The position numbers and the translations under genes are program-made. Below are positions 13,600 to 34,277 of a stretch of DNA of 64,000 bases, piece after piece. The notes under the pieces were generated by a model. The model was not told where the DNA came from. It saw only the letters and a program-made list of their open reading frames with translations, and ran no database searches. The stretch is from Candidatus Bipolaricaulia bacterium (GTDB lineage: Bacteria > Bipolaricaulota > Bipolaricaulia > JBHIAT01). Numbering within the stretch: position 1 is the first letter of the stretch; each line of letters begins with the position of its first letter. The stretch lies in NCBI GenBank assembly GCA_046758705.1, contig JBHIAT010000001.1:3963-67962 (forward strand). The letters run 5' to 3'.

Positions 13600-13609
13600 C
13601 TTATCCTCC

Positions 13610-15952: not shown

Positions 15953-15953
15953 C

Positions 15954-18569: not shown

Positions 18570-20974
18570 TGACGGCCTCCTCTCACATCAAAAAAGATGA
18601 ATCCTTTCTCCATGTGATCCGGGTCGTTCTTGACCTGGATGATTTCGTTGACGCGTACTTCGATAATGTTCTCTGTCCCTGGCGTCACTTCGTTCCAACG
18701 CTTCATGGTCACGGCAATCACATGATCGACGCCCTCGACCAACTGCACTCGTCCGATGATTTGACTTGCCCTGAGCTCTTGTCCAAACGTCCATTGGTCG
18801 GGGTGAAAAAACACCATTCTGCCATCCGGCGTATACCCGTCTGAAAACTCCTGCTCGAGAATGAATTTGATATCCTCCGGCCAGTAATCAGGATGAATAC
18901 AGAGTGAGACGTGTATTTCTAAGGGAACAAATCGTGGCGGCCGGATCTCCAGATCTTCTCCGATGAGCCGGACGGCATCCAGATGGCGTGCGATTTCCTT
19001 CCGCAGTTCTTCCTTCAGTTCGGTTGTGCCAACAGGGTCGATGGCGATTTGAACCGTTCTCCAACTCCCGGTCCAGGCGTACCTGGCCGCAGCTCTCGAA
19101 ACCTCATCGAGTTCTTCAGTGCGATCGACGTAATCTTTAAGAGTGACAGCACGGAGTTGTCGAAAGCGATAGGCTTCTGGAACACGGCGAATGATTTCGG
19201 CCACGGGTTCTGGAAACCGGCCATTGGTCACATCGAAGGGATTCCAACACTCCTCTATTTCAGGAAAAGCTGTTCTGTCGAAATGAATCAGCTGATCTGC
19301 ACCGATGTTACCGTCGAGGCCCCTACCGATTTGGTAAGAGCTGTGAACCTCAGCCTCGCCCGGGAACTCCTTTTCGTTGATGCCATTCCCAAAGCGAATC
19401 AGGCTTCGTCCGTCTTCGTCGGTTTCTACAACAAAGTGATCATCGCTATCATCACTGTGAATCAGATTGATGACTTCATTCCATTGATCGCTGCCGCCTC
19501 CAGGCGTTTCGACGGTCACTTCAAGCGTTGACTCCGGTGGCACTTCGCCTCCCGGAGATGTGCTTTTATAAGCGAGCGGTCCTTCAGGCAGCTCGCAGAT
19601 TGTGCCCCACCTTTCGGTTCTCTCATAATGAAATTCATCGGGACCTGTGAGGGTCGTTCCCGGCTCTTTGAAAACAACGGTTTTAGGGCGACCGTGGTAG
19701 ACCCCCACCAGATTCCCGTGAAAGAGGGAGACATCTTCGACCTTCCCATCGGGGCAGTCTACTGTGAAACAGTAATCACTTCTCAGTTCGTCCTTTTCCT
19801 CCCATCGGACCCGCACGAACCAATCTCCAGTCAGAGGGTCTTGCATGGTTTCAGCACCCTCATTTCCAGCTAACAGTTTCAATAACTGCCTTTTGGCAGG
19901 ATCTCTGCCTGCCGCCTCGCCGGTTGATGGATTGAACCACTCCTGAATCGAAAGATGCGTAATCTTCCCATCACGAATTAAATCTCGAACTATATTTGCC
20001 GATGCTTCTCCACCTACGGTGAGCTTCAGATCAGCACTGGTGCTTCCGGCTGCCAGAGCCGGGAGCGAATCACTCCACGTATACAGTCTCATCTGGCTGA
20101 GCAAATGGTGCATATGCTGTTGTTTCTGGGTCATGAAGAGAACGGAAGATGGGTCGTTGATATCATTTTCGTTTCCTGCCCAAACCAAAAAACCTTTGGG
20201 TAAATCGAATTCTTCACCATCGGCCAATTCCACGGCCAGCCAGGTGCTTGCCTGATTGCCCTGGTGGATGTGGTAATCCATCAATCGCGCATGCCGGGCC
20301 AGTGAAACTCGCTTGCGTGACGTACCGAGATAGGCCTCATTCATCACCCTGTCCTGGTAGTCACTGAGCTCGTCCGCGGCAGCACTGAAGAGTTCCGACA
20401 GGATTAGGCCCAGATCAGCTTCGCTGATAGCCTCCCAGTTCGGCACCCGTTCCATCATCGCTGCGATCATGGTATGCCGGAATGAATCGTAATCTTTGGC
20501 GAGGTAATCGATCGCAGGGTCTTCCTTCGGTTCAGGGGCAGGTTCCCAATCGGGTGCGCAATCGATATTGAAGCATCCAGGTCGGAATTTGAATTGCATT
20601 TCACTGAAGATAGGATCGATGTTTTGAAAATCAATACTCAACGTATAAGTGGAGTAATCTCCAATCGGTGCTACAGTCAGCACTAGAGAGTTATCAGCTG
20701 GGCCTCCCGAAATCGATACGACTTTGACTTGGTCAGCGCCTGGACCGGCGGGAATTCGATGACCTCCCGAAATGGGAAAGATCAATTTAGGCTCTTGAGG
20801 ATCCGCCAGAATATTGGCAACCTCATTATTGTTGTGGAAGTGGACCTCAAGGTGCGCTTCGGTGAGATTTGGAGCCGGATGTAAGGTTACCAGAACCAGG
20901 TTGAAACCATTGAGGCCTTGCGCTTCTAGATCATTCGCTCGCTCATTTAAAGCTTCTTGATTTTTAATGGCCAT
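18566..20974 (-). CDS. baseplate J-like protein (gpJ/gp6 homolog)
   Basis: IDYLAKDYDSFRHTMIAAMMERVPNWEAISEADLGLILSELF...SDYQDRVMNEAYLGTSRKRVSLARHARLMDY = Baseplate_J; start set to MAIKNQ (20974) right after the stop of the gp25-like gene; ORF-track N-terminal extension overlaps that gene and is rejected. Confidence 0.7.
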   Translation of the reverse strand: MAIKNQEALNERANDLEAQGLNGFNLVLVTLHPAPNLTEAHLEVHFHNNNEVANILADPQEPKLIFPISGGHRIPAGPGADQVKVVSISGGPADNSLVLTVAPIGDYSTYTLSIDFQNIDPIFSEMQFKFRPGCFNIDCAPDWEPAPEPKEDPAIDYLAKDYDSFRHTMIAAMMERVPNWEAISEADLGLILSELFSAAADELSDYQDRVMNEAYLGTSRKRVSLARHARLMDYHIHQGNQASTWLAVELADGEEFDLPKGFLVWAGNENDINDPSSVLFMTQKQQHMHHLLSQMRLYTWSDSLPALAAGSTSADLKLTVGGEASANIVRDLIRDGKITHLSIQEWFNPSTGEAAGRDPAKRQLLKLLAGNEGAETMQDPLTGDWFVRVRWEEKDELRSDYCFTVDCPDGKVEDVSLFHGNLVGVYHGRPKTVVFKEPGTTLTGPDEFHYERTERWGTICELPEGPLAYKSTSPGGEVPPESTLEVTVETPGGGSDQWNEVINLIHSDDSDDHFVVETDEDGRSLIRFGNGINEKEFPGEAEVHSSYQIGRGLDGNIGADQLIHFDRTAFPEIEECWNPFDVTNGRFPEPVAEIIRRVPEAYRFRQLRAVTLKDYVDRTEELDEVSRAAARYAWTGSWRTVQIAIDPVGTTELKEELRKEIARHLDAVRLIGEDLEIRPPRFVPLEIHVSLCIHPDYWPEDIKFILEQEFSDGYTPDGRMVFFHPDQWTFGQELRASQIIGRVQLVEGVDHVIAVTMKRWNEVTPGTENIIEVRVNEIIQVKNDPDHMEKGFIFFDVRGGRQ

Positions 20975-20976
20975 CC

Positions 20977-21363
20977 CTATCCACCACTCCGTTGAAATCT
21001 CATGACCCGGATATCCTCGGTCCCTGCGATCCGGTATTTGATCTCCACTTCGATCGTCTCGGTTTCTACAGTCACGGTGAGATCCTCTATGGTGATGCGG
21101 TGTCCCAACCAGCGTGAAATCGCCTGAGTGAGCGTGGCTTTTGTCATTCCCTCGGTCGTTGGATCCGCATTCTCGAAGACGAGACGACGGACCCCGCCTC
21201 CGAATTCCGGCAGAAAAACCCGTTCGCCAAGATTGGTCAGGATCAATTGGATCAGCTCCTCTCGGACATGATCCTTCACAGAGGAGACCCGAACAGTTCG
21301 TCCATCTTTCCCGATGCGGAATGGAAAGGATAAATGTCTTCCATAATCCTCTGTCATTGCCAA
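20977..21363 (-). CDS. baseplate wedge protein gp25/gpW-like
   Basis: LSFPFRIGKDGRTV...EELIQLILTNLGERVFLPEFGGGVRRLVFE matches GPW_gp25 consensus. Confidence 0.8.
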   Translation of the reverse strand: MAMTEDYGRHLSFPFRIGKDGRTVRVSSVKDHVREELIQLILTNLGERVFLPEFGGGVRRLVFENADPTTEGMTKATLTQAISRWLGHRITIEDLTVTVETETIEVEIKYRIAGTEDIRVMRFQRSGG

Positions 21364-21433
21364 TCCTCAATCATTGTGTAGACACCTTAGTCCGACGGTG
21401 AGATGTGAAATGGATAATCCGTATAATCTAGCA

Positions 21434-21706
21434 TCACGGTTTAACACCAATTGTAGGGTGTCCATCATGAGTGTGTGTTCCGTCTTCCAAATGTATCTGG
21501 AATGCCTGCTCGTTGTTTTTGAGGTGATTGATCACTCCACGTGCAATGGCGATAAATAGCATTCGCCGATCCCGGTTACCCAGGGGAATTGGATCCATCC
21601 CCTCCTTGGCGCGCAGGTCATTCAGTGCTTTCTCAATCTCACCAGCCATGCTATTCTCGAATTGACCCTGTGGCTCATTTAGCGATCCACCATACAACTC
21701 TTCCAT
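21434..21706 (-). CDS. small hypothetical protein in the spike-tip (PAAR) position; not PAAR-like
   Basis: 90 aa, His-rich C-terminus (HLEDGTHTHDGHP); between gpV-like spike and gp25-like genes. Confidence 0.4.
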   Translation of the reverse strand: MEELYGGSLNEPQGQFENSMAGEIEKALNDLRAKEGMDPIPLGNRDRRMLFIAIARGVINHLKNNEQAFQIHLEDGTHTHDGHPTIGVKP

Positions 21707-21716
21707 GTGATTCCTC

Positions 21717-22439
21717 CTATCCAGACTTGACTTTCATCGAAAGCAAACTCGGCGTTGCCGGTGGGAAAGGCGGTACCGGTGTTGTTGGAGTAACAGGAAT
21801 AAACCCGGCAGCCAGTTCACCTGGATGAATATGGCTGTTGAACAAGTTTACGAGCAGGTTTAAATATTGCAAAAGGTTATCACCGAACACCACCGGGTGC
21901 ATGGCGTTCTCCACCAGTTCGATTTGCGGCGCCTCGACAACAGCTTTGACCGCACCCTGGATCGTGATCTGGCCCTGCTGTACTTTAATCGTTAACATAT
22001 TGCTACCCTTCTCGTCACTCAACGTGATCGTTTGGCTGCCGTCATCCAGCGTGACCATCAACCCTTTCTCACTGCGAATGATCTTGAGCGGTGGTGTGGC
22101 CGCCGTACCGCTGTTATCCTTGGGCAACTCCCCTCCACCCCACCAACAGCCACTCCAAATAGGACGAGAGACGTCCCCTGCCTCAAACTCGATCCACACG
22201 CCGGCACCGATAGGAGGGATCATGAACTGTCCCTCCCCGTCCCCGGAGTAGGGAATGGATGGCAGTGCCCAGGGAGAGTCTACTTCTTCTCCATAGACCT
22301 CGGGAACCTGGGCGATAATGCGACCCAGATTCTCTGGATCATCCACATCTCGAACAAGGCCTCGATACTTGCCGAAATAACGGGAATGCATGAATTCAGC
22401 CGCTTCGACAACTAACTTCTCCATCTCCAAATCAGGCAT
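21717..22439 (-). CDS. baseplate spike protein, gpV/gp5 OB-fold family
   Basis: GRIIAQVPEVYGEEVDSPWALPSIPYSGDGEGQFMIPPIGAGVWIEFEAGDVSRPIW = Phage_base_V consensus. Confidence 0.75.
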   Translation of the reverse strand: MPDLEMEKLVVEAAEFMHSRYFGKYRGLVRDVDDPENLGRIIAQVPEVYGEEVDSPWALPSIPYSGDGEGQFMIPPIGAGVWIEFEAGDVSRPIWSGCWWGGGELPKDNSGTAATPPLKIIRSEKGLMVTLDDGSQTITLSDEKGSNMLTIKVQQGQITIQGAVKAVVEAPQIELVENAMHPVVFGDNLLQYLNLLVNLFNSHIHPGELAAGFIPVTPTTPVPPFPPATPSLLSMKVKSG

Positions 22440-23584
22440 CAGAATATACCTCCCGCTAGATTCGTCAAGCTGCCGTTGGAACGCTCAATCTTAGATTGAG
22501 CATCCGTCTTCAAAGAAAAAGACTGAGAATAAATCGAGCGTGTTAAACCGTGGGTAACCTTGGTGATCAAATAATTTCCGCTTAACGGAGTCTCTCCCGC
22601 TTTGACGGTCACGAGGCGATAGGGTCGTAGCACACCCAGGTAACAACCCTCCAGAACACTTCCTGTCGCCTCAAAGGCGTAACTCGATTCATCGACCTTG
22701 GCTGATACGGCTTGATCCAGATCTACGGACTCACCCTGACGGGGAGGAAGGATCTGAACCGCTGGCTCTTCGCCTTCTTCTAATGTAGCTTTCTGTCCTA
22801 ACAGTTCACGATCCCGAAAGCTCGCCGTGCTGGAAACTACCCCCTTGTCTGTGATGCGAAGGGTGGAAGCCCTCACAACAGAAGGCTTCTGGGCATTTTT
22901 CTTGACGTTAAATGATTTAATATTTCGGTCCGATCCCAGTAAGATGAGTGGAGGAAGCTCATCTGTTTGTTGCGGAAGGTCTGATGGTTTTGGAAAAAAC
23001 TTGAAGTTGCCGACACTTTGCCCTGGACGGTCACCTGGAAAAACATAGGCATGCATTCCCTGACGTTTTGCCAACGACCTCAGTATTTGCATCGATGTGC
23101 CACGCTGAATGACTGGTGGAGGAGCACTGCCTGGTGGGGACGTATCGTCGATGTCAGTAGCGGCTATCTGTTCGAAGTCGTCGAATATTTGCTTGGCGAT
23201 TTCATGATCCAATCGACCTTCAAACCGTGAGACGTTGTCTTCCCGATTCAAAAAGACGCTATCATCCTGGACAATCAAGGTGATAGCACTTTGTCCCGGC
23301 TCTGAACTTTTCGGGCTGTCAGATTTGACGATCGGTCCGTCAATCAGGGGTACAAAAGGCGCTTTTCCGATTTTGATTTCCACCCTTATCCGTGAAAAAG
23401 GCTTCATAAAATCCTCGTCTTCTCCTGTCCATTTTCCCTTCTCATCAACACAAATAGGGATCTCAATACGGGCTTCCCACGCCATGTCCACTTCCTGCTC
23501 CACGGTGATCTCTTCGACTCTGTCCAACTGCTCTCGCGTAGCAGGTTTGTTGTTGAAAAACAGTCTGTATGCGATATCCGACAT
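22439..23584 (-). CDS. baseplate hub protein, phage late-control D (gpD/gp27-like)
   Basis: 381 aa; C-terminal GNYLITKVTHGLTRSIYSQSFSL matches gpD family C-terminus; ATGA coupling to flanking genes. Confidence 0.6.
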   Translation of the reverse strand: MSDIAYRLFFNNKPATREQLDRVEEITVEQEVDMAWEARIEIPICVDEKGKWTGEDEDFMKPFSRIRVEIKIGKAPFVPLIDGPIVKSDSPKSSEPGQSAITLIVQDDSVFLNREDNVSRFEGRLDHEIAKQIFDDFEQIAATDIDDTSPPGSAPPPVIQRGTSMQILRSLAKRQGMHAYVFPGDRPGQSVGNFKFFPKPSDLPQQTDELPPLILLGSDRNIKSFNVKKNAQKPSVVRASTLRITDKGVVSSTASFRDRELLGQKATLEEGEEPAVQILPPRQGESVDLDQAVSAKVDESSYAFEATGSVLEGCYLGVLRPYRLVTVKAGETPLSGNYLITKVTHGLTRSIYSQSFSLKTDAQSKIERSNGSLTNLAGGIF

Positions 23585-23856
23585 TATTGCTCCGGTACCT
23601 TTATGACACGACCTGTTTCCTTGACCAGATCATTGGCCTGTAACTCCGTGTTGGCATCGGCGATGTGCCAAAACATGGTCGGGTTGTTATACTGACGCTG
23701 GGCCATGATATCGAGCCGGTCGTTCCCGGTTACGACGGTCGGTGCGCCACTGACCACAGGCAGTCTTCTCAGTGTCACCGCCTTCACAGTTCGCCCATCT
23801 TTTGTGATCGCGTTCACAACCTCTTGGTTGAAATATCTTGACGACTCTAAAAACAT
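23584..23856 (-). CDS. tail protein X-like (LysM-type) small protein
   Basis: 90 aa; DRLDIMAQRQYNNPTMFWHIADAN resembles gpX/LysM segment. Confidence 0.45.
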   Translation of the reverse strand: MFLESSRYFNQEVVNAITKDGRTVKAVTLRRLPVVSGAPTVVTGNDRLDIMAQRQYNNPTMFWHIADANTELQANDLVKETGRVIKVPEQ

Positions 23857-23865
23857 CTCGCCCTC

Positions 23866-24540
23866 CTAAAATGGAATGAGATCAACCACTTGTTGAGCGG
23901 TGTTAGCAAGATTTGTGATGGCCTGAGCTTCTTTCGCGAGATTCGAATACTCAAGCGCACCTTTGGCGATCTTATCATCCGAACAGGGATCGATGGTGAT
24001 TATAGCCAGACCCAGAGAGACTTCAGCCTGGATCGGGTTCAGTAAGTGATCGTACTGCTGTTCGGTGATGCTCATGGATTCGATGATGACGGGCAGTACC
24101 CTCGTCAGGCCCCAGATGAAAAGAATTCGAGGGTAATTTTCTCTAGGGATAGGTTGCGTCGGACCCTCCTCATCACCACCGCCGAAGATGGCATCCCCGA
24201 TAGCGTCAATCGCTTCCCCGATCAAGCCGCTGATTTTTGCACTGGGATGGGCCATTTGTTCCAGCGCCGCCAACTGAGGACCAATACCGAATGTCCTTGC
24301 CAGGGGATTGTCTCTTTCCAATTGGTCAGCAGCGCTAAAGTGGGCAGTGAGGGTGATCTTTTCCACTGGAATTTCGCCCGCCTGAGTCGTCTCTCGACTT
24401 GCGGCTCCAGTGGGACGAGGAGGTATCTGAATGTTTCGCGTCAGGCTCTCAGGATTGAACTGAAAAATTACGACATTGGGAATGGGTCCGAGGAAATCGC
24501 TTCCGTATTCGATCAGGGCACCGCGCAATAAGTAGGGCAT
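23866..24540 (-). CDS. hypothetical eCIS protein, candidate tube-initiator/baseplate component
   Basis: 224 aa; conserved-looking VIFQFNPESLTRNIQ segment; position immediately upstream of LysM protein mirrors split Afp7/Pvc7 arrangement (inference only). Confidence 0.35.
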   Translation of the reverse strand: MPYLLRGALIEYGSDFLGPIPNVVIFQFNPESLTRNIQIPPRPTGAASRETTQAGEIPVEKITLTAHFSAADQLERDNPLARTFGIGPQLAALEQMAHPSAKISGLIGEAIDAIGDAIFGGGDEEGPTQPIPRENYPRILFIWGLTRVLPVIIESMSITEQQYDHLLNPIQAEVSLGLAIITIDPCSDDKIAKGALEYSNLAKEAQAITNLANTAQQVVDLIPF

Positions 24541-24543
24541 AAC

Positions 24544-24861
24544 TTAGCTTCCCCCTTGCGTATACGATTTGGTTTTTGATGTGATGGACTCGGAAATTCT
24601 GCCAGCGATCATCCTCCGCAAGTCGAAGGCGCTTGTGCCTGTTGAAGTTCGGAAAGCCCCCGAGTCAATTTTGCTGATGTTGATTGCGTGTTTTTTTCTC
24701 AAAAGACCGTGCTGCTTTGCAAGTTGCTTTAGCAATTCATGGCCCAGTCCCGCGACCGAGGAACGGGCCACCTGGGGTGATATATCTTTAAGGCGAATTT
24801 CTAATCGATCAATTTTTATGTTTGTCATCTTCATGCTCCATTTTTTCCACGATTTCGGCAT
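24544..24861 (-). CDS. small hypothetical protein
   Basis: 105-aa ORF; N-terminus overlaps the ATPase gene end so a later start (MKMTNIK, ~24834) is more likely. Confidence 0.3.
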   Translation of the reverse strand: MPKSWKKWSMKMTNIKIDRLEIRLKDISPQVARSSVAGLGHELLKQLAKQHGLLRKKHAINISKIDSGAFRTSTGTSAFDLRRMIAGRISESITSKTKSYTQGGS

Positions 24862-27004
24862 AAGATCCGAACTGTTCGAGGCTTACAGATCGATTCAATT
24901 TGTCGTATTCCCTTTTCACGGCGTTGATGATCTGCTCCATTGTCAACAGGTCTTTAAAGTCATCTAGGCGAACACTCAAACCACTGGCGCTTTGAAGACA
25001 TGCATTGAAGACAATCGAACGGATGTGTCCACCAGCGAGCTGAAATTGTTTCGCTAGAAAGTCAAAATCAATCTTCGAACGATCGACGGTTTTGGGAATG
25101 ACTTGGTGCCAGATCTTCCTTCTCTCCTCCGCGCTCGGAAGGGGAAAGTCGATGATGTGACGTAACCTCCTTAAAAAAGCCTCATCAAGATCCTTCTTAC
25201 GATTGGTAGCGAGGATCGCCAGGCCTTTGAACCGTTCCATTCGCTCCAGCAAATAGCTAATTTCGAGATTGGCATACCGGTCGTGTGCGTCTTTGACCTC
25301 AGTTCGACGTCCAAAAAGGGAATCGGCTTCATCGAAGAAGAGAATGGTGTCAGAAATATCTGCTGCATCGAATAGCCGCTTCAAGTTCTTTTCCGTCTCT
25401 CCTATATATTTGTTGACCACCTGGGATAGGTCGATCCGGTACATCGGTAGATCCAATTTAATGGCCAAAATCTCAGCGGCCATCGTCTTACCCGTGCCCG
25501 GAGGTCCGGCGAAGAGCACGGAAATACCGCTTTCGTTCCATACCCTGGCTGTTCCCCAGCCATAATGAACCTCCGTCAGCGACTTCATCGCCTTGAGGAT
25601 TTCCTGAAACTGCAGGTGCTGTTTGCGTGGCAGGAATAGTTCTTCGTCCTCAAATCGAGGAATCACCTTCTGAGCCAACTCGCCTATGTCTAGATCCAAT
25701 TCCACTCTGCACGCCCTAAAGAAATCTTTTTCCGAAATTGGCTCGGGTAATCCTTCGGAAATAGCATTGATGATCTCTTTTTCGTAACGGAAACGGCGTG
25801 AGCCTTCCGCAATGACGCTATCCAAACCCTTGGCTTTTGTTCCTAGCGCTTTTTCCCAGTGAGCGATGCGTTGGTGATAGGAAAACTTGGGAACACCAAC
25901 GATCGGCAGCAGAAGATGACCGGGAATGTGAGTCAGTTGACTTCGCTCAGTGATGCCCAGAAAAATGGTTATGGGTATCGATTGAAGAGGTAGTAAAGAA
26001 GTATCTGAATGTTGTCTATCGTCACCTAGAGCGGACACCAGGTCTTGACTGAGAAACATATCCACGCCTCTTAACCAGCAAAGAGTCGCAAATGAGTTCA
26101 GAGAGTGGCTATTTTCAAGAAAACCGGGATCCCCTTTGAATTCGACGACATCTCGATTTGCTAAGTTCGCTATTCCACGGACCATTTCGATGTGAGCAGA
26201 GCCTCTCGGCCCGCGGACCGGGACTACGCGGAGCGTATTTCCACGGTTAGAATTTAATCTGGATGCGACCAGACGGACGTCATCTGTCAGAGCAACATCC
26301 TCCCCATCGTCCACAGTGACCGGAACCAAAGCGTGGGGCAGGGGCAAGTTTGGGAAAAGCAACTGGTTCGCCACCAGCGAAGGCACCGCAATCGGACTCT
26401 CCCAATCAATCTCTGAATTGTGTTGTGAGGTTTGGCCGCTGTGTTGAAGCAATCTGTAGCGAAATAGTGGGTGAGCGGGGTCAGCCAGCATTAAGACCCG
26501 CTCAGGATGATCCCACAGTTTCTGGGCGAGGGCCAGATTCGGATGGGTCCGCACTGGATCGTTGAGGCAGGCAGCGATGACGCTTCCCACGGCATTATCA
26601 AAAGCCACCGTCAATCCCAAAGCCAGGGCGAACGAGGCAATATCGTCTAAGTTCAATTTGTGAACAACCCAGCCAAATGAGCCTTGGGCAAGATGTTTAT
26701 CTGCAGGAGGAGGATCAGCTTTAAGTTGCTCAGTTAGATATCGCGCGGTCGGATCGGTCTGAAAAAACTTGTTCTTTTCCTCCCAATAGCGGCTCATGTC
26801 GAGACTCGCTGATGCTTTATCGACGAAGGGTGGCAGGATCGCCGAGTCCGAATCGGGAAGCAGGCCGCGTTCGTGCCAGCACCAGCATACTTCCCGTCTC
26901 AATCTGACGGTAACCTGTCGCATCCAGTAGATTGCACAGGCATCATCCGCACGGAGACCGGGCGAAAATGTAATGGGCTCTCTTTTGTTCGTAAACGTGG
27001 TCAT
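24809..27004 (-). CDS. eCIS AAA+ ATPase (Afp15/Pvc15-like)
   Basis: 731 aa; Walker A GPPGTGKTMAAEILA, Walker B ILFFDEADSLF, long N-terminal domains; follows DUF4255 gene with 4-nt overlap. Confidence 0.8.
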   Translation of the reverse strand: MTTFTNKREPITFSPGLRADDACAIYWMRQVTVRLRREVCWCWHERGLLPDSDSAILPPFVDKASASLDMSRYWEEKNKFFQTDPTARYLTEQLKADPPPADKHLAQGSFGWVVHKLNLDDIASFALALGLTVAFDNAVGSVIAACLNDPVRTHPNLALAQKLWDHPERVLMLADPAHPLFRYRLLQHSGQTSQHNSEIDWESPIAVPSLVANQLLFPNLPLPHALVPVTVDDGEDVALTDDVRLVASRLNSNRGNTLRVVPVRGPRGSAHIEMVRGIANLANRDVVEFKGDPGFLENSHSLNSFATLCWLRGVDMFLSQDLVSALGDDRQHSDTSLLPLQSIPITIFLGITERSQLTHIPGHLLLPIVGVPKFSYHQRIAHWEKALGTKAKGLDSVIAEGSRRFRYEKEIINAISEGLPEPISEKDFFRACRVELDLDIGELAQKVIPRFEDEELFLPRKQHLQFQEILKAMKSLTEVHYGWGTARVWNESGISVLFAGPPGTGKTMAAEILAIKLDLPMYRIDLSQVVNKYIGETEKNLKRLFDAADISDTILFFDEADSLFGRRTEVKDAHDRYANLEISYLLERMERFKGLAILATNRKKDLDEAFLRRLRHIIDFPLPSAEERRKIWHQVIPKTVDRSKIDFDFLAKQFQLAGGHIRSIVFNACLQSASGLSVRLDDFKDLLTMEQIINAVKREYDKLNRSVSLEQFGSYAEIVEKMEHEDDKHKN

Positions 27005-28188
27005 GGGACAATCAGCTCCACCTCTGGGCTGTTCTTAGATTGCTGACCGTTTACTCGGAGGATCACCCGATATTTTCCAGGTGGTACGGCATCTTCCTGC
27101 TTTATTGCTAATGTCAGAGTATTTTGCGATGGGTCTGTTGTGAATTCGTCAAATACTTTCACGGTACTTCCGTCTCTATAGAGTGCTACAAAAATGTCAT
27201 CCTCCTCGGTTCCCAGAAGGACACCGGTCATATCAATGTTGCCAAATACGTCAGAATCTGGATCTGCTAGGTCATCATGTTGAAGTGAATTCGGAACTGC
27301 ATCAGTAAGAGTTGGCAAGAGATCTCCAATCAAAAGATTGCTCGACCTGCGTCGTCCGGTCAGCAAGGTCTGGACAACAGATATAGGGTGACTTCCTGCG
27401 GAAATCACACTACCATTTTCAATAGTTTCATCAACCAGGCATTCCAGCTTATCCGGTTGTTGAGCGGTAACAGCCAGCTCTGCCGGACCGAGGCAGACAG
27501 ACAAGCCGGATAAGTCCAGATCGCTCCCCAAAATGGTTAAGGTGGAATTCACTTCAAATTTTGAAGGGGAAATATGTGTTATCTTTGGTCCCATGGAAGG
27601 GATCACCGGAATTTGAACCCCTGCTTCGCCGATCACCTCGATAGGACTCTCTGTGTAATCAACACCCACAAGGAGAGAATAGGATGGCAGCTCGTCTGTC
27701 GCAATCATTACAGGCCTGACTTGAAAACTAATGGAAAACCGGTACTTCTCATCAGATCCCTGCATTAGTTTGGATAGAAGCTCGGAAGAGGCCTCATCGA
27801 AGGTAATCTTTAAAATCTCCGGATTGTCTTTGAGGGCATCAATCGTTGTATGCAATGGCAAATAGCTGAGCTTTTGGAGAGCACGAATTCCTTTACCGAG
27901 GTTTTCATGGGCTTTAACGGAGTCGCTGTCCCCAGCCTCGTCGAAGGCAGTCATTAAATACTTCAAAACTAACCATAGGGGGGCGGGTTGTCCCTCATCA
28001 AACGGTAGATTCTTCAAACTTGGATCAAACAGCGCTTCATACAGAAAAAGGTTGAGTCTTTCACCATCTGTTCCCGGGGCTGGTTCCGGCCGCCCCACCT
28101 TTATGCTAAGATTGGTCTCAGCGCTGAGATGCTCAATTAATAGATCTGAGACCTTCCCTATTGCCAGCTCTGTATCTGCAAGGGCCAT
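27001..28188 (-). CDS. eCIS tail terminator/cap protein, DUF4255 (Pvc16/Afp16-like)
   Basis: N-terminus LADTELAIGKVSDLLIEHL...LSIKVGRPEPAP...LNLFLYEALFDPSLKN matches Pvc16_N/DUF4255 pattern. Confidence 0.65.
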   Translation of the reverse strand: MALADTELAIGKVSDLLIEHLSAETNLSIKVGRPEPAPGTDGERLNLFLYEALFDPSLKNLPFDEGQPAPLWLVLKYLMTAFDEAGDSDSVKAHENLGKGIRALQKLSYLPLHTTIDALKDNPEILKITFDEASSELLSKLMQGSDEKYRFSISFQVRPVMIATDELPSYSLLVGVDYTESPIEVIGEAGVQIPVIPSMGPKITHISPSKFEVNSTLTILGSDLDLSGLSVCLGPAELAVTAQQPDKLECLVDETIENGSVISAGSHPISVVQTLLTGRRRSSNLLIGDLLPTLTDAVPNSLQHDDLADPDSDVFGNIDMTGVLLGTEEDDIFVALYRDGSTVKVFDEFTTDPSQNTLTLAIKQEDAVPPGKYRVILRVNGQQSKNSPEVELIVP

Positions 28189-28204
28189 CTTAGGGTTATC
28201 TCAC

Positions 28205-29086
28205 CTACCTTATGTAATACCGACTCAACCTTGAATGCTCACTTGCTACATTGGACTTTCTCTCTTTTGTGATCACTTGCGGAGGCTCTTTGCTTTGGCT
28301 TTGGGCTTCTTTCTGAGGCTCTTCTATAGTTAGACTAATGGTTCCAATTGACAGGTGAAAATCATGGATTTCAGGTTCCTTGCTTTGTTGCGACTCCATC
28401 AATTTTGGATGAGAATAAGAAGCTGCAGGCAGCTCCCTCTCACCACGGGTGACAGGTATCCTCTCTCCCATCTCCACCGTTTTACTTATATCCCTGTTCT
28501 TTATTTCTTCGTTGTCCACAATAGGTGTTTCGGCAACCCATTCCCTGACTTCCTTCAAATAAGCCTGCTGTATTTGCACCTGGCTGACTCGATCTTCTGA
28601 TTCCACTCCGGGTTTGAAAACAAGATCATCTTCGACCTCTTGACTGGCCGAGGAAGAGGGTTTATCCAAGTGTGGAACGGATTCTTTACCGACAGGATCG
28701 CTTTCAACCATCTCCTCTCTTTCCAACAATTCTCCAGCACTGATTTCACGCTTTTGGCCCTTCAATTTCACCCATTCTGATGTGCGACTTTGCGGTTCTT
28801 CCGAAATCTGTCTCTCGAACCTTTCTTCTATTGAATTCCGAATATTCTCGTCTTCGGGAATCGGAACCGAACTTTCAGAGTCTTCTCTGATACCCTCAGG
28901 AACCCCCTCAATTACCTGATCTGGTTGAGGCTCAATCAATTTTCTCTCTTCAACGTGAATCGGGGTTATCTCGTCACGTCCCTTCGACCTTATCGGAGAT
29001 AGCTCAAGGAAGCCCGGTCTGAAATCACCGCTGGGTCCGAATGTAATACCGGTTTGTTGTATTAGTCTAGAAAAATAACCTTTCAT
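28205..29086 (-). CDS. acidic low-complexity protein, possible tape-measure/length-determination analogue
   Basis: Glu/Ser-rich 293 aa (start MKGYFSRL at 29086 forms ATGA overlap with upstream stop); position after tube gene as in P2 (E/E'-T); assignment by synteny only. Confidence 0.3.
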   Translation of the reverse strand: MKGYFSRLIQQTGITFGPSGDFRPGFLELSPIRSKGRDEITPIHVEERKLIEPQPDQVIEGVPEGIREDSESSVPIPEDENIRNSIEERFERQISEEPQSRTSEWVKLKGQKREISAGELLEREEMVESDPVGKESVPHLDKPSSSASQEVEDDLVFKPGVESEDRVSQVQIQQAYLKEVREWVAETPIVDNEEIKNRDISKTVEMGERIPVTRGERELPAASYSHPKLMESQQSKEPEIHDFHLSIGTISLTIEEPQKEAQSQSKEPPQVITKERKSNVASEHSRLSRYYIR

Positions 29087-29949
29087 CGGTTTCCCTCTTT
29101 CTCGATCAGAGCTAGATAATAGGAACGTCGCCACGGAGGCAGGGAAAAAATCTGCTGTTCACTCCAGTGATAATGGAATGCTAAGTGGTGGACGGTCTGA
29201 AGGAGATTCAGTTGAGCTTCGTGCAGTTTGTGCAATGAGAGTTCTTCTAAATTGAACTCGTAATGGCCTTCCCTGCTACAGTACGGACAAGGGACCGAGA
29301 GACTGAAATTGACCAACGGGTCAAGTTCTTCCATGGTCTCATTGATGGTCTGAACCCATTCGTCGAGTATCGGGTATTCTTCATTGGATACGGCTTTCTC
29401 ATTATCAAGCACCAAAGTACGGATCATTGACTTTACCGCCGTATCTTCATCCATGAAGGAGCGCTTCAGCCATTCAAGTTGATCTCTCCCAGTCGGTCTT
29501 CGTATGAGAAGACTTTCGTCACCGATCTGGATCATAAAATGATCGGTGTCATCCGCTTGATGTTGTAAACTAGCGAGCTCGTCCATGGAAATCTCGATCT
29601 CCATCTGTTGCTGGCATGTTTCACTTGGACAACGGAGACGAACAGATAGTTTTGATGAGCTCCCTAAAGTTAAAGTGACGATGGTCAGCAAACATTCGAT
29701 CCGTTTGCCGATCGTAAGATCCCAAAAGAAGTTTAGATCGGGCGTCTCTCCATTTTTATTAATGGTATAACACTGTAGTATCTGAGTCACTAAGTGGGGA
29801 CGGACCTTCTGGTTGAAGTCGATTTCGAGATCATCTTCAAAGAATCCAAATAGTCGAAGTGATAAACCATTGTTTGAATATTTCGCTTTAATGCTGTTGG
29901 GTATTCTCGGGAATGGTGCCAGAAAGCCGTGTCTTTCGGATATCAGCAT
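29083..29949 (-). CDS. hypothetical protein with two Cys pairs (possible assembly chaperone)
   Basis: 288 aa; RCPSETC and CPYCSREG motifs; no family recognised. Confidence 0.3.
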   Translation of the reverse strand: MLISERHGFLAPFPRIPNSIKAKYSNNGLSLRLFGFFEDDLEIDFNQKVRPHLVTQILQCYTINKNGETPDLNFFWDLTIGKRIECLLTIVTLTLGSSSKLSVRLRCPSETCQQQMEIEISMDELASLQHQADDTDHFMIQIGDESLLIRRPTGRDQLEWLKRSFMDEDTAVKSMIRTLVLDNEKAVSNEEYPILDEWVQTINETMEELDPLVNFSLSVPCPYCSREGHYEFNLEELSLHKLHEAQLNLLQTVHHLAFHYHWSEQQIFSLPPWRRSYYLALIEKEGNR

Positions 29950-29988
29950 CTGAGATTAACCTCTATTCTCTATTATTATTTATTATTC

Positions 29989-30513
29989 TCAGCCGGGTGG
30001 CGGAACGTCGCTGGCTTCATCCGGCTCTTTGGTATCCACGTCGCGTTCCCAGCCTTCCAATTGAATCTGGATGGTTTCAATGGCAATAGCATTTGCGTTA
30101 GCATCGAGTTCCGGAACCGCCGTGAACTCACTGACCCAGCAATCATGGAGGAAATAACGCAGCGCAACGTGCCCCTTTTCGTTCATCACTTCGAGGGTCA
30201 ATTCCTTTTTGTAATTGACTAAGTCCATCCCAGTATCTCCGGCGTAGGGATGCACCATGTTCACCCACTTCTCAAATTCGGTATCGTGTGTTATCCCTCG
30301 TTCCATAGTGATTGCGTCGTAAGTAGTGCGCCCCGGAGACTTGTGATCGGTACTATTTTCACCGCCTTCCCGATGATTGACGACTTCTGTTGTCCTCTTC
30401 AGCGCACCGACTTTGCTGACACCCAGGACAGGTCTGCCGTCCATGATAACCCTGAACTTATAGTTCTTATACGGATCGATACGATGGGCATTCTTCACAA
30501 AACCGGTAGCCAT
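29989..30513 (-). CDS. contractile tail tube protein (gp19/Afp1-like)
   Basis: YKNYKFRVIMDGRPVLGVSKVGALKRTTEVVNHREGG...PGRTTYDAITMERG = eCIS/T4 gp19 tube consensus; AGGAGGAGG SD. Confidence 0.85.
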   Translation of the reverse strand: MATGFVKNAHRIDPYKNYKFRVIMDGRPVLGVSKVGALKRTTEVVNHREGGENSTDHKSPGRTTYDAITMERGITHDTEFEKWVNMVHPYAGDTGMDLVNYKKELTLEVMNEKGHVALRYFLHDCWVSEFTAVPELDANANAIAIETIQIQLEGWERDVDTKEPDEASDVPPPG

Positions 30514-30540: not shown

Positions 30541-32916
30541 TTAGAGTTCACCTGCGATTTGCTGAATCTTGATGATGACAAACTCCGCTGGCTTGAGCGG
30601 AGCAAAGCCGACTTCAATGTTGACAATGCCAAGGTTCCGGTCGGCTTGCGTCGTTGTTTCGTCGTCACATTTGACATAGAACGCTTGATCCGGCGTGCTA
30701 CCCTGGAACGCCCCCTGACGGAAAAGCTGCATCATAAAGGCACCTACATTGAGCCGTATCTTGGCCCACAGGGGTTCATCATTGGGCTCAAAAACGACCC
30801 ACTGGGTGCCGCGGTAGAGAGATTCTTCAAGAAAAAGGGCCAGACGGCGGATGGGTATGTATTTCCACTCAGAGCCAATGTCGTCGGCACCATCCATGGT
30901 TCGCGAGCCCCAATTGACAATACCGCTTGGGAATTTACGCAGGCAATTAACCCCGAGTTTATTCAAAACGCCATTCTCCCTGTCGGTGAGATTGACCTCT
31001 AGGTCTAGAACACCCCTGAGGTCAGCTTCGGTTCCAGCAGGCGCTTTCCAAACTCCGCGGGTTGAATCTATGCGCGCCATCAATCCAGCAATCATCCCGG
31101 ACGGGCCGATTAATTTTTTGATGCCGGTGTCGCTATACTGAACCTTCGGATAAAAGACAGCGGAGTAGTCCTTCACGACGAGTGCACGAAGGTTATTGAC
31201 TTCTACACTGGTAGCCACTGGACGGTCAACGCTCGTCCAACTATCCGGCGCATCCATAAGAAGAAACGCGCGTCTTTGCTGACAGTAGGTACTGGCCGGC
31301 CCCCAGAGCTGCAGGTGAGTCGCCTCGTCAATGTCTCTGTCCCCTGACAAGACCATCAGGTTGAAAATATCGACGCTATCCAAGGCATGGAAGCCAGTCT
31401 GATCCGCCTCGCTTCCGACATAATCAGCAACATCAGGGGGATTCCCGTCATCGTCCTGACCGATCGTCCCGGCTCCATCCTGGAAGTTACTGGTGCCCGT
31501 CGCCCCCAGGGCGTACTGGCGTACGTTTGGCGTAAAAAGGTTCAGCCCTCCTGGTCCGATATCGGTCCCACCTCCCCCGCTGTTCCCCGTGTTAATCTGG
31601 ATGGTGTTGTTGATAGTACCCGTGGTGGGGATGAAAGCCAGGTGGTATCCCCAAACCTCGGCACGACAAGGCGAGTTCGGATCATCATTTACCGCTTTTG
31701 CAATGATTCTCGATTTTTCTCGGACGCCATCGTTGTGATCGTTGACATCTGGAGTCAGGTTGTCACGATACCATCGGTCTCCGGCAGCAGTTGTCTGCAA
31801 GTCGGTTCCCAAATCCACGGTAGTTCCAGACAAAGTAATCTGATTGAAGGCATCTTGTTGCAGCGCAACCAGACTGTTGATATCTCCTGTAAGTATGGTC
31901 GCCGTAGGAACCGGCCGGTGATTGCTGTAACGAGTCACCTCGATTCCGCCTTGGTCCAGTCCGAGCATCAGAGGCCCTGCAAGATCATTTGTTGGGCTTC
32001 TACGGATTCTGACGCTGGATTCGTTACCCGAGTCTGAGGTGATTCTGAGAACATAGATATCCCCATCAACTTGTTCCCATCCACATTCGATTGACAGTCC
32101 CGTGATGGCGGCTCCCAGTTGGGTGTTGATTTCAGCTTGTATAGCTGTTGCAGCTTCATCTCTAAAAACCCCTCCGGGAGAGTGGCTAATAGTCACTCCA
32201 GAAAGATCGATGGGGACAAATTGCTCTCCATTTACACTGATTTCAAAATGACCGGTTCCGGACAATAAATTATTAAGAGCAGTATGAAAAGTCCCACCAG
32301 GCGTTGTATCGAAGGGCCTGCGGCTTTCACTGTACCCAACAACAGGGTTTGATTCTATGTTAAATCCAGTAGCAAGATCAAGATCTATTATTTTAGAGCT
32401 CTGAGTGACAAATAATGGAGCGTAGCGTGGTGAGGTCGGATTCATAGACAGATTGGTGAAAGTCTCCGAGTTAATTACAGTTCCTCCCTCCTCATGGATG
32501 ACTGTCAAGTTGAAGGTCTCGTCAGGGTTTGGGGTGTTATAATCCACCTCAAGATGTATTCCATTCCCCCAATTGCCTGCATGTTTAGCCGTAGCTGTAA
32601 GAACATTGGTACCATTGAGGTTTTGTAAGGTTATATCCGCTTTTTCAGCGTTGTGTGCTAACCGAACTACATAACAATCCGTTCCCCCATTATTGAAGAA
32701 CTGCCTTACACTTTGTGTTAAGCCACTGGATGGATGGGCACCGCCAAATTCCCTGGTGAAATCAGATAGGCTCAAACATCTAACCGCTTTGTTAATAGGA
32801 CCTTTAGCTGTCCGCCCCAAAAAAGCTGCTATTGAAGTAGCAACACCGGTAATAGTATGTACACCACTTGGTACTTCCTCAATGTAGACGCCTGGATAGG
32901 TGGGTGTGACCGGCAT
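30541..32916 (-). CDS. contractile tail sheath protein (large, with inserted domains)
   Basis: N-terminus TYPGVYIEEVPSGVHTITGVATSIAAFLG and C-terminal sheath domain (VWKAPAGTEADLRGV...NCLRKFPSGIVNWGSRT); GGAGG SD 8 nt upstream. Confidence 0.9.
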   Translation of the reverse strand: MPVTPTYPGVYIEEVPSGVHTITGVATSIAAFLGRTAKGPINKAVRCLSLSDFTREFGGAHPSSGLTQSVRQFFNNGGTDCYVVRLAHNAEKADITLQNLNGTNVLTATAKHAGNWGNGIHLEVDYNTPNPDETFNLTVIHEEGGTVINSETFTNLSMNPTSPRYAPLFVTQSSKIIDLDLATGFNIESNPVVGYSESRRPFDTTPGGTFHTALNNLLSGTGHFEISVNGEQFVPIDLSGVTISHSPGGVFRDEAATAIQAEINTQLGAAITGLSIECGWEQVDGDIYVLRITSDSGNESSVRIRRSPTNDLAGPLMLGLDQGGIEVTRYSNHRPVPTATILTGDINSLVALQQDAFNQITLSGTTVDLGTDLQTTAAGDRWYRDNLTPDVNDHNDGVREKSRIIAKAVNDDPNSPCRAEVWGYHLAFIPTTGTINNTIQINTGNSGGGGTDIGPGGLNLFTPNVRQYALGATGTSNFQDGAGTIGQDDDGNPPDVADYVGSEADQTGFHALDSVDIFNLMVLSGDRDIDEATHLQLWGPASTYCQQRRAFLLMDAPDSWTSVDRPVATSVEVNNLRALVVKDYSAVFYPKVQYSDTGIKKLIGPSGMIAGLMARIDSTRGVWKAPAGTEADLRGVLDLEVNLTDRENGVLNKLGVNCLRKFPSGIVNWGSRTMDGADDIGSEWKYIPIRRLALFLEESLYRGTQWVVFEPNDEPLWAKIRLNVGAFMMQLFRQGAFQGSTPDQAFYVKCDDETTTQADRNLGIVNIEVGFAPLKPAEFVIIKIQQIAGEL

Positions 32917-33016
32917 AGTTTACCTCCTCTTGATAAACAATTCCTTCGTTCCGTATCCTTACCGGACCTAACAACTAAATGGCAACGTTGGTACCATTAA
33001 TTATAGGAACAGGCGA

Positions 33017-33034
33017 TGCGCAAACGCTGCGCAA
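33017..33034 (-). promoter_or_regulatory. direct heptamer repeats TTGCGCA-N4-TTGCGCA (11-bp period) about 100 bp upstream of sheath start; candidate SARP box
   Basis: Plus strand tgcgcaaacgctgcgcaa at 33017-33034; SARP regulators bind heptamer direct repeats with 11-bp periodicity near -35. Confidence 0.35.
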
Positions 33035-33087
33035 CCATCGAACTCCCGTCTCAACGGTTCTTGGAAAACATATAACCCGAATCTTCT

Positions 33088-33900
33088 CTAAATCCTCCGA
33101 CACAGGCTCTGGGTCTCTGAGGTTGGAGTTACCCCGAACTGCTCCTGGAGGACCCTATGAACCCGTTGGCACAGATAGAGGGCCTGCCCGCGATGACCCA
33201 GCTTCAGTTCTGCCTGAATTAACAAACGATAGGCCTCTTCATAGCACTCACTGATTTCCAGGATGCGATAGCAATGCGCCACAACCTGCTCGAACTGTCC
33301 TCGCCGATATTCGATCTCGGCCAGGGCCTCCAGGGCTTTGACGTACTGGTCCCGAAACCACTCCTGTTTCAGATCTACCCAGTCGTAATAGAAGCCCTGC
33401 AGATAATCCCCCCGGTAGAGGGTCACCGCCGCCTGATAGTGTTCCTGGGCGTCCTTGAGATCCCCCCGTTCGATCGCCAACCTCGCCCGTTCCAGGTGTG
33501 TCTCGAATTGAGCCACATCCAGCTGGAAAGCATGGGGAGGATGAAACTCGTAAAGACCTTTCCGATAGACGATGTAATCCTGATCCTGATGTTGCCCGTT
33601 ACAGATGCCGTTACCGTTAAGGGCCTGACGAACGTACCGAATCGTCGAGCACAGGTTGGCCCGACCTCGCTTGTAAGGGCAGTCGGGCCAGAAGGCGGTC
33701 ATCAGCCGCTCCCGGGAGGCCTGACCGTGGATGGTGAGAAACGCCAGAATCCCCTGGGTGTTTTGGGATCGCCACGCTCGGTCCGGAACCGCCGCTCCTT
33801 GTTTGAAGACCTGAAATGGGCCGAACAACCGAATCTGTAATTCCAACGCCCCTGATCCTTCCGACAGGGCCCCAGAAGAAATATAGACCGGCTTACCCAT
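33088..33900 (-). CDS. SARP-family transcriptional activator (OmpR-type winged helix + BTAD domain)
   Basis: LFGPFQVFKQGAAV...ILAFLTIHGQASRERLMTAFWP followed by BTAD-like helical repeats (YEEAYRLLIQAELKLGHRGQALYLCQRVHRVLQEQFGVTPTSET). Confidence 0.75.
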   Translation of the reverse strand: MGKPVYISSGALSEGSGALELQIRLFGPFQVFKQGAAVPDRAWRSQNTQGILAFLTIHGQASRERLMTAFWPDCPYKRGRANLCSTIRYVRQALNGNGICNGQHQDQDYIVYRKGLYEFHPPHAFQLDVAQFETHLERARLAIERGDLKDAQEHYQAAVTLYRGDYLQGFYYDWVDLKQEWFRDQYVKALEALAEIEYRRGQFEQVVAHCYRILEISECYEEAYRLLIQAELKLGHRGQALYLCQRVHRVLQEQFGVTPTSETQSLCRRI

Positions 33901-34027
33901 GGAGATACACCCCCCTATTTTTATCCGGTGTTAGGAACAACTACCGACAGATCCTCACCTCCTTGTTTTCTTGCTTAACTTCGGATTCACTATGACAGTA
34001 GGAAGTCTATCCCAGAGAGGTTGCAAA

Positions 34028-34070
34028 ATTGTTGATGCGCATTGTCAAAAATTGTCAAAACGATTGTTAA
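34028..34070. promoter_or_regulatory. four ATTGT(C/T)A direct repeats spaced 10-13 bp (two perfect tandem ATTGTCAAAA decamers) upstream of SARP gene
   Basis: aaattgttgatgcgcattgtcaaaaattgtcaaaacgattgttaa; on the coding strand of the SARP gene these read as tandem TTTTGACAAT units containing TTGACA -35-like hexamers. Confidence 0.35.
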
Positions 34071-34277
34071 TCGTGGAGATCCTATGGATCAGGGCCTCCT
34101 CAAATGCCCCCTCGCCTCCTTGGATGTTCATTTGACACAAATCATCATCCTCTTGTCAACCCAGTCACGGGAGGTGATCGGCGACGCGGTATCTGCGTGC
34201 CATTGGAGGCAAGGAGGGTAGTGCAGCAGATGAATTTTGCATGGCTTAGGCAAGATTCAGGGGATGGGACATCCGGC

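Follow-up and report, generated by a model that had tools for sequence, protein, structure and literature searches.

A predicted SARP box in an activator-dependent type of sheath promoter at the head of a contractile injection system operon in Candidatus Bipolaricaulia

The stretch analysed here, 64,000 nucleotides of a contig from a Candidatus Bipolaricaulia metagenome-assembled genome (MAG) and called the window below, carries an extracellular contractile injection system (eCIS) operon and, directly upstream of it, a gene for a small regulator of the Streptomyces antibiotic regulatory protein (SARP) type. Our analysis indicates that this regulator probably activates the promoter of the sheath gene by occupying two 11-bp repeats and so replacing the contact that a -35 element would otherwise provide. 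The regulator gene (33088..33900, minus strand, 270 aa) lies upstream of the sheath gene (30541..32916, minus strand, 791 aa; Pfam Phage_sheath_1, Phage_sheath_1C and domII), with which the eCIS operon begins. The gap between the two is 171 bp long (32917-33087), as the initial annotation of this DNA had described. In the proposed mechanism two SARP protomers would bind side by side, head to tail, on TGCGCAGCGTT and TGCGCATCGCC (33033->33012), would thereby cover the -35/spacer region of the sheath promoter, and would recruit RNA polymerase to a promoter with a perfect TATAAT and no -35, the outcome being activation of the eCIS operon from the sheath gene onward. This would correspond to the 'sigma adaptation' mode described for AfsR (PMC10936776). 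Physical binding, the direction of the effect and the transcription start site are what we infer from this arrangement.

The predicted target is located in the gap between the two genes. At plus coordinates 33017-33034 the minus strand reads TTGCGCAgcgtTTGCGCA (TTGCGCA-N4-TTGCGCA, with the heptamers at 33034->33028 and 33023->33017), and in the coding direction the gap runs ...GATGG TTGCGCA GCGT TTGCGCA TCGCCTGTTCC TATAAT TAATGG.... The similarity stretches over 10 nt, TTGCGCA(G/T)CG, with 90% identity at 11-bp spacing (TTGCGCAGCG and TTGCGCATCG), and we predict a 22-bp SARP box at 33012..33033 of the minus strand, composed of the direct repeats TGCGCAGCGTT (33033->33023) and TGCGCATCGCC (33022->33012). 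A perfect -10 hexamer, TATAAT (33000..33005, minus strand, read 33005->33000), follows 8 bp after the end of the 10-nt repeat, with 11 nt between it and the proximal TGCGCA hexamer. Nothing resembling a -35 hexamer was found 16-18 bp upstream of this TATAAT, and a promoter scan gave no two-hexamer sigma-70 match there, the site being missed because the -35 element is absent; by its layout the promoter would therefore depend on an activator. The position of the -10 predicts that transcription starts near 32992-32994. The presumed 5' leader of the sheath mRNA would occupy 32917..32999 (minus strand), with a recognizable ribosome-binding site, GAGGAGG, at 32923-32929 (minus strand).

SARP targets described so far consist of direct repeats 11 or 22 bp apart, the 3' repeat lying 8 bp from the -10, and the 22-bp afs box spans -40 to -19, overlaps a poor -35 and is bound by two protomers side by side (PMC10936776). 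Judged on sequence alone, the site in the window has this geometry, with repeats 11 bp apart, 8 bp to the -10 and an overlapped -35 region. With up to 2 mismatches allowed, the heptamer pair has no second site in the 64-kb window, and matches with 3 mismatches are as frequent as expected by chance.

By its structure the regulator itself is a complete small SARP, composed of an OmpR-type winged helix-turn-helix (wHTH; residues about 20-126) followed directly by a bacterial transcriptional activation (BTA) domain (residues 127-270), and without any sensor domain. The BTA domain announced by the initial annotation was recovered with Pfam BTAD (PF03704) at residues 127-270 (E=1.5e-24; 87.5 bits vs a cutoff of 22.1). 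The winged helix, also part of that annotation, was found by three routes. In phmmer searches of the PDB sequences, residues 20-269 align to residues 10-253 of EmbR (2fez; E=6.9e-8), which is the best sequence match among solved structures, and residues 13-270 align to the SARP domain of AfsR (8hvr, 8k60, 8jke). An AlphaFold2 model built from an alignment of 14 sequences (mean pLDDT 90.4, pTM 0.85) predicts the order b-b-a1-b-a2-a3-hairpin at residues 21-127 with pLDDT >90, which is the order of an OmpR-type wHTH, and a domain of helices only after it. In a Foldseek comparison of this model with the PDB, the top six matches were AfsR (8k60, 8hvr) and EmbR (2fez, 2ff4), extending over 254-264 columns and thus the whole SARP domain, with TM values of 0.74-0.80. 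Because no sensor domain is present, control is probably exerted via the amount of regulator. In its historical sense the name SARP implies an actinobacterial host and a secondary-metabolite cluster, whereas here the host belongs to Bipolaricaulia and the neighbour is an eCIS; this limits the name, not the mechanism. The protein deposited at NCBI for the source MAG (P0001) is 100% identical to the open reading frame (ORF), and its product is shorter, with 252 aa beginning at L19 (TTG, 33846).

Since the orthologous eCIS loci were negative for the box (see below), the test of conservation was moved to the relatives of the regulator, and it is here that the prediction finds its strongest support. 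About 35 bp ahead of the gene of the closest relative, P0002 (42% identity), stands the box CTGCGCAgcctTTGCGCA, with TAGAAT following after 11 nt. When the window protein and P0002 were combined into a search profile, the clade members P0015, P0016, P0017 and P0018 were retrieved. The clade proteins share 39-43% identity with the window protein and 55-89% with one another; identity to the window protein amounts to 46-51% in the DNA-binding domain and 65-70% in the recognition-helix region, compared with 34-38% in the BTA domain, and the core motif of the recognition helix, ARANLCST[ILMV]RYVRxAL, hardly varies in the clade. Counted by distinct loci (L001, L132, L135 and L136, with L133 and L134 being shorter contigs of the same sequence as L132), six [T/C]GCGCA-N5-[T/C]GCGCA sites were detected, against an average of 0.03 matches in shuffles of the 17 kb. 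Every one of them is intergenic and on the coding strand of the regulator, four just upstream of the regulator gene and two after its stop codon (62 and 137 bp), before the next gene. Exactly 11 nt after the sites stand the hexamers TAGAAT, TAGAAT, TAAAAT, TATGAT, GAGAAT and TACAAT.

The model thus rests on seven promoters across five loci. In their alignment GCGCAG...T..GCGCA is invariant, as are A2, A5 and T6 of the -10; positions 2, 5 and 6 are among the most important ones for recognition by sigma-70. The initial annotation had pointed to TTGCGCA-N4-TTGCGCA with an 11-bp period as a SARP site and had made its conservation in related loci a test. Position, period and conservation beside the regulator relatives were borne out, including the spacing to the -10, and only the unit has to be redrawn: in 13 of 14 cases a G stands directly 3' of the hexamer, so the repeated unit is TGCGCAG rather than TTGCGCA. 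Its broader suggestion, that a SARP controls the injection system in a pathway-specific way via 11-bp repeats, is likewise supported in silico by protein structure, box position and conservation in the clade.

As the box precedes their own gene in the relatives, positive autoregulation is suggested there. No such box exists upstream of the regulator in the window (33901..34277), so autoregulation is not expected for this copy. More distant relatives (P0003, P0004, P0005 and P0008; 23-33% identity) have neither eCIS neighbours nor exact 11-bp-spaced heptamers. A separate feature of the clade loci are 7-bp tandem arrays directly upstream of both SARP boxes, namely CGTGATT x5.3, CAGACCT x2.4 and CTGACCC x3.6 in L132 (1624-1660, 2494-2545) and GGTCAAT x3 in L001 (4575-4599); the window has no equivalent of them.

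A second pairing of a BTAD gene with an eCIS was found in L007, where the gene of P0006 (26% identity) lies directly upstream of an eCIS operon with AAA ATPase, Pvc16_N, sheath and tube genes. After the stop codon of P0006 stand ATTTACC, ATTCACC, TTTTACC and ATTTACC at exact 11-bp spacing, a series of non-palindromic heptamers with a score of 26/28 that was reached in none of 5000 shuffles, the period of 11 being the best among 8-14. Tandem repeats one helical turn apart are, as far as these predicted sites tell, a theme common to the window clade and L007. Upstream of the BTAD gene, L007 contains AAAATCTTTAG 3-4 times within positions 1-55 (spacings 11, 20 and 11 bp), a second repeat with an 11-bp period whose sequence is not that of the ATTTACC set behind the gene. 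Directly after the BTAD regulator L007 has a small ORF (1520-1747, 75 aa), which is the first gene of its eCIS operon; a related small ORF occupies the same place in L008 (1621-1836, 71 aa). The two share an N-terminal HYxSFxVxVW (BLASTP E=1e-6) and have no Pfam match, and no counterpart was found in the window.

Several points weigh against activation of the sheath promoter by the SARP. Pfam Trans_reg_C (PF00486) gave no match in the regulator or its close relatives, even at E<=10. The assignment of the -10 presumes promoters of the sigma-70 type, which are uncharacterised in Bipolaricaulia. Within the window the repeat is only modestly improbable and hence only suggestive: when the 171-bp gap was dinucleotide-shuffled 20,000 times, two identical 7-mers stood 11 bp apart with P=0.008, and a 7-mer repeat at any spacing of 10-12 or 21-23 bp with P=0.048. 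A search of GTDB genomes with the sheath protein led to two loci only, L003 (Nitrospirota MAG117, JBFLZS010000013.1; sheath identity 82%) and L004 (a Roseomonas MAG; sheath identity 55%), and neither has a SARP or the box, so the box is no conserved feature of this eCIS lineage and the search for the same heptamer upstream of orthologous eCIS loci, proposed in the initial annotation, was negative. In the other loci of the clade, what lies downstream as the predicted target is not an eCIS but the gene of a large secreted FG-GAP/Kre9_KNH protein; the gene behind the downstream box encodes such a protein of 1159 aa in L132, and in L135 it is a short ORF fragment. Moreover, a terminator scan found nothing in the gap between regulator and sheath gene, so read-through transcription could also contribute, and because TGCGCA is palindromic the site is at the same time an inverted repeat, usable by another dimeric factor.

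Of these points, the lack of a terminator bears on an alternative that we regard as unlikely, according to which the SARP binds the box but represses, or transcripts of the operon arise chiefly by read-through or at other promoters, so that the box would have a minor or negative role. Proteins bound over the core promoter, which the box overlaps, can also block RNA polymerase, and gaps inside the operon (e.g. 21371-21716, 23585-23865 and 24541-24808) could hold further promoters. However, the structural family of the regulator consists of activators that work from this very position (PMC10936776), the missing -35 element points to a promoter depending on an activator, and a box in front of the relatives' own genes fits positive feedback.

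It is rather improbable that some other symmetric dimeric factor, such as a repressor, uses the site as a palindromic operator (TGCGCA-N5-TGCGCA), with the SARP as a mere neighbour. TGCGCA is self-complementary, a match with 2 mismatches exists on the plus strand as well, and the arms can pair. Nevertheless, the site accompanies the SARP clade in 5 of 5 loci and always in the orientation of the regulator, and the G after the hexamer in 13 of 14 cases follows the pattern of a direct repeat, whereas the flanking bases needed for an inverted repeat are complementary in only 3 of 7 sites. The fixed 11 nt to a -10 without -35 is typical of an activator site, and the distant relative in L007 has non-palindromic heptamers at the same period.

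We consider it very improbable that the element works as an RNA hairpin, be it a terminator or attenuator behind the regulator gene or a structured part of the sheath mRNA leader. The minimum free energy fold of the gap does pair the two GCGCA arms (5-bp stem, 5-nt loop), but no U-tract follows the stem, the terminator scan is empty there, the fold energy of the gap is no better than that of shuffles (z=-1.04), and 32700-34400 contains no Rfam match. The element lies upstream of the -10, so it would be outside the sheath transcript, and in the relatives it precedes the regulator gene, where a terminator would make no sense.

A functionless chance repeat, with which the within-window P of 0.008-0.05 and the lack of enrichment of the single heptamer (8 observed vs 7.5 expected) would agree, is effectively refuted, since box and -10 spacing are conserved beside the regulator relatives in six sites of the same geometry vs 0.03 expected, and core and -10 positions are invariant in the seven-promoter alignment. 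A metagenome scan with TGCGCA-N5-TGCGCA-N11-TANAAT gave at least 120 matches, and those listed were unrelated sites with no BTAD or eCIS gene nearby (tblastn), which makes such a pattern scan uninformative for the box. In viral contigs the same pattern had 2 matches, both unrelated, and searches of these contigs with the regulator, the alignment A1 and P0006 returned no relatives. A sequence recurring in the metagenome scan, gaaagTTGCGCAtggtcTGCGCAtgagTTGCGCGTAGAAT, is composed of three TGCGCA-like units at 11 bp and was seen in L033, L037, L042, L050 (6968-7001), L053 and about 12 other loci; the copy in L050 falls within an ORF of 415 aa that runs on the other strand, with no BTAD gene nearby, and gaaagTTGCGCAtggtcTGCGCAtgagTTGCGCGTAGAAT is probably unrelated to the SARP box.

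The comparison with L003 points to an exchange of regulatory front ends. In L003 the place of SARP and box is taken by a sigma-54 enhancer-binding protein (2845-4658; Sigma54_activat E=3e-65 plus HTH_8), together with a TGGCAT-N5-TTGC motif at 4111-4125, a presumed sigma-54 promoter, and a 77-aa wHTH-like ORF. Nucleotide homology between the window and L003 starts exactly at the sheath ATG (window 32916 = L003 4659); since homology begins only there and the upstream regulators are different, the front end has been exchanged and the structural operon kept. As judged from the loci compared, the box travels with the regulator and not with the eCIS. It is conceivable, and we put it forward tentatively, that the SARP gene and the box/-10 promoter form a portable cassette that was fused, at the start codon of the sheath gene, with an eCIS island which had moved between phyla. 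The base composition suggests a recent transfer of the eCIS island between phyla, as its GC content is 0.50 (6173-33900) vs 0.59-0.61 in the flanking alpha-amylase and TctABC genes; the regulator gene has 0.566 and the Nitrospirota eCIS relative 0.38-0.44. No tRNA gene was found in the 64-kb window.

The remaining eCIS genes of the window are located on the same strand as the sheath gene (6173..30513, minus; Pfam and NCBIfam). They encode a T4 gp19-type tube protein (29989-30513; TIGR02241, with weak CIS1/CIS5), a Pvc16_N/TIG protein (27001-28188), an AAA ATPase (24809-27004), a spike OB domain protein (Phage_base_V; 21717-22439), a weak Baseplate_J-like match (18566-21370), a DUF6519/beta-helix fibre-like protein (9934-13599) and an eCIS_core (DUF4157) protein (6173-9004; E=3e-32). 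Sheath, tube, spike, baseplate (weak), AAA, Pvc16_N and eCIS_core occur in one set, as in Afp/PVC-like eCIS, judged by the genes alone, and the whole 27-kb gene set would constitute one regulated unit. The set is flanked by an alpha-amylase gene (4283-6154) on one side and by TctA (34278-35786), part of a TctABC transporter operon, on the other. With 791 aa the sheath is unusually long, and the Pfam sheath domains cover only residues 90-152 and 518-786; the split of the matches at 152/518 implies an insertion of about 360 aa. A long sheath is common to L003 (793 aa), L004 (807 aa) and L007 (812 aa). At the edge of the window, an ORF on the plus strand (14-2278) has a partial AAA_16 domain and many TPR repeats, like the NOD-TPR part of MalT and of large SARPs; it is apparently truncated by the window edge, so an N-terminal SARP domain would be outside the view.

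The interval between the regulator gene and the TctA stop codon (33901..34277), which lacks a SARP box, contains repeats of another kind. At 34041-34060 a perfect tandem of ATTGTCAAAA x2 corresponds to TTGACA x2 on the minus strand, and it is flanked by ATTGTTGAT and ATTGTTAAT (34025-34073). The 11-mer ATTGTTAATCG (34063-34073) is present also in L008, close behind the BTAD gene (about 1529-1539). The repeats at 34025-34073 may serve the regulator gene as promoter or operator.

The mechanisms that switch on eCIS operons are poorly understood, and most of these operons are silent in the laboratory, which hampers both their study and their use for programmable protein delivery. The locus provides a testable promoter model, with a named regulator, a 22-bp box, a -10 and exact coordinates. 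With this locus the SARP mechanism would reach an uncultured lineage outside the actinobacteria and a target other than an antibiotic cluster, and the locus illustrates that nearly identical eCIS structural operons can bear wholly different regulatory front ends. If this is true generally, eCIS islands might swap their front ends to suit the signalling of each new host, and this non-actinobacterial SARP clade, with an unusually clear predicted operator (TGCGCAG-N4, twice) and, in the relatives, a box arrangement suggestive of autoregulation, could be a tractable switch for silent eCIS operons.

The association of BTAD genes with eCIS and the SARP mechanism are both already known, and in this respect the advance is incremental. 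BTAD was described as a regulatory 'shell' domain of eCIS, present in 5 phyla and about 28-fold enriched, and eCIS operons were proposed to be regulated by adjacent genes with GerE or BTAD domains (Geller et al., 2021, PMC8213781); the association is repeated in a 2026 review. The view of the initial annotation that SARPs are normally tied to antibiotic clusters is therefore outdated. What is new is the predicted operator and promoter with coordinates, the conservation of this putative operator in a non-actinobacterial SARP clade and the evidence, drawn from sequence comparison, of a module swap. The Geller text and supplements searched contain no binding site, promoter or mechanism for the BTAD-eCIS pairing, the text of the 2026 review that was searched contains no binding site or promoter, and the literature searched held no paper that connects Bipolaricaulota with contractile injection.

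Among known systems the closest parallel is AfsR on the afs box of the afsS promoter in Streptomyces coelicolor (8HVR, 8K60, 8JKE). Both proteins have the same two-domain fold, and both targets, the one in the window as predicted, consist of two 11-bp direct repeats over the -35/spacer just upstream of a -10 without a usable -35. Unlike AfsR, to which its identity is about 20-22%, the regulator has no NOD or TPR extension, its host is a member of Bipolaricaulia and not an actinobacterium, and its target would be an eCIS operon; unlike the afs box, the predicted repeat is TGCGCAG with a palindromic core. In size (about 250-280 aa), wHTH and BTA composition and a gene adjoining its target operon, the regulator resembles ActII-ORF4, RedD and DnrI, whose sites likewise show heptamers every 11 bp and a 3' repeat about 8 bp from the -10 (PMC10936776). 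These proteins control antibiotic clusters of Streptomyces, whereas the regulator in the window fronts the operon of a phage-tail-like particle. EmbR of Mycobacterium tuberculosis (2FEZ) has the same wHTH and BTA core, but carries in addition a C-terminal FHA domain and is under Ser/Thr kinase control, and the window regulator has no such domain. As in the loci of Geller et al. (2021; eCIStem), a BTAD gene adjoins the eCIS operon; that work dealt with domain co-occurrence only, and its examples include large actinobacterial BTAD proteins (PMC8213781). Other front-end regulators of eCIS, namely those of the GerE/LuxR type, the RfaH type and the sigma-54 activator of L003, are likewise encoded directly upstream of the structural operon, but their DNA-binding folds and mechanisms differ from those of a SARP.

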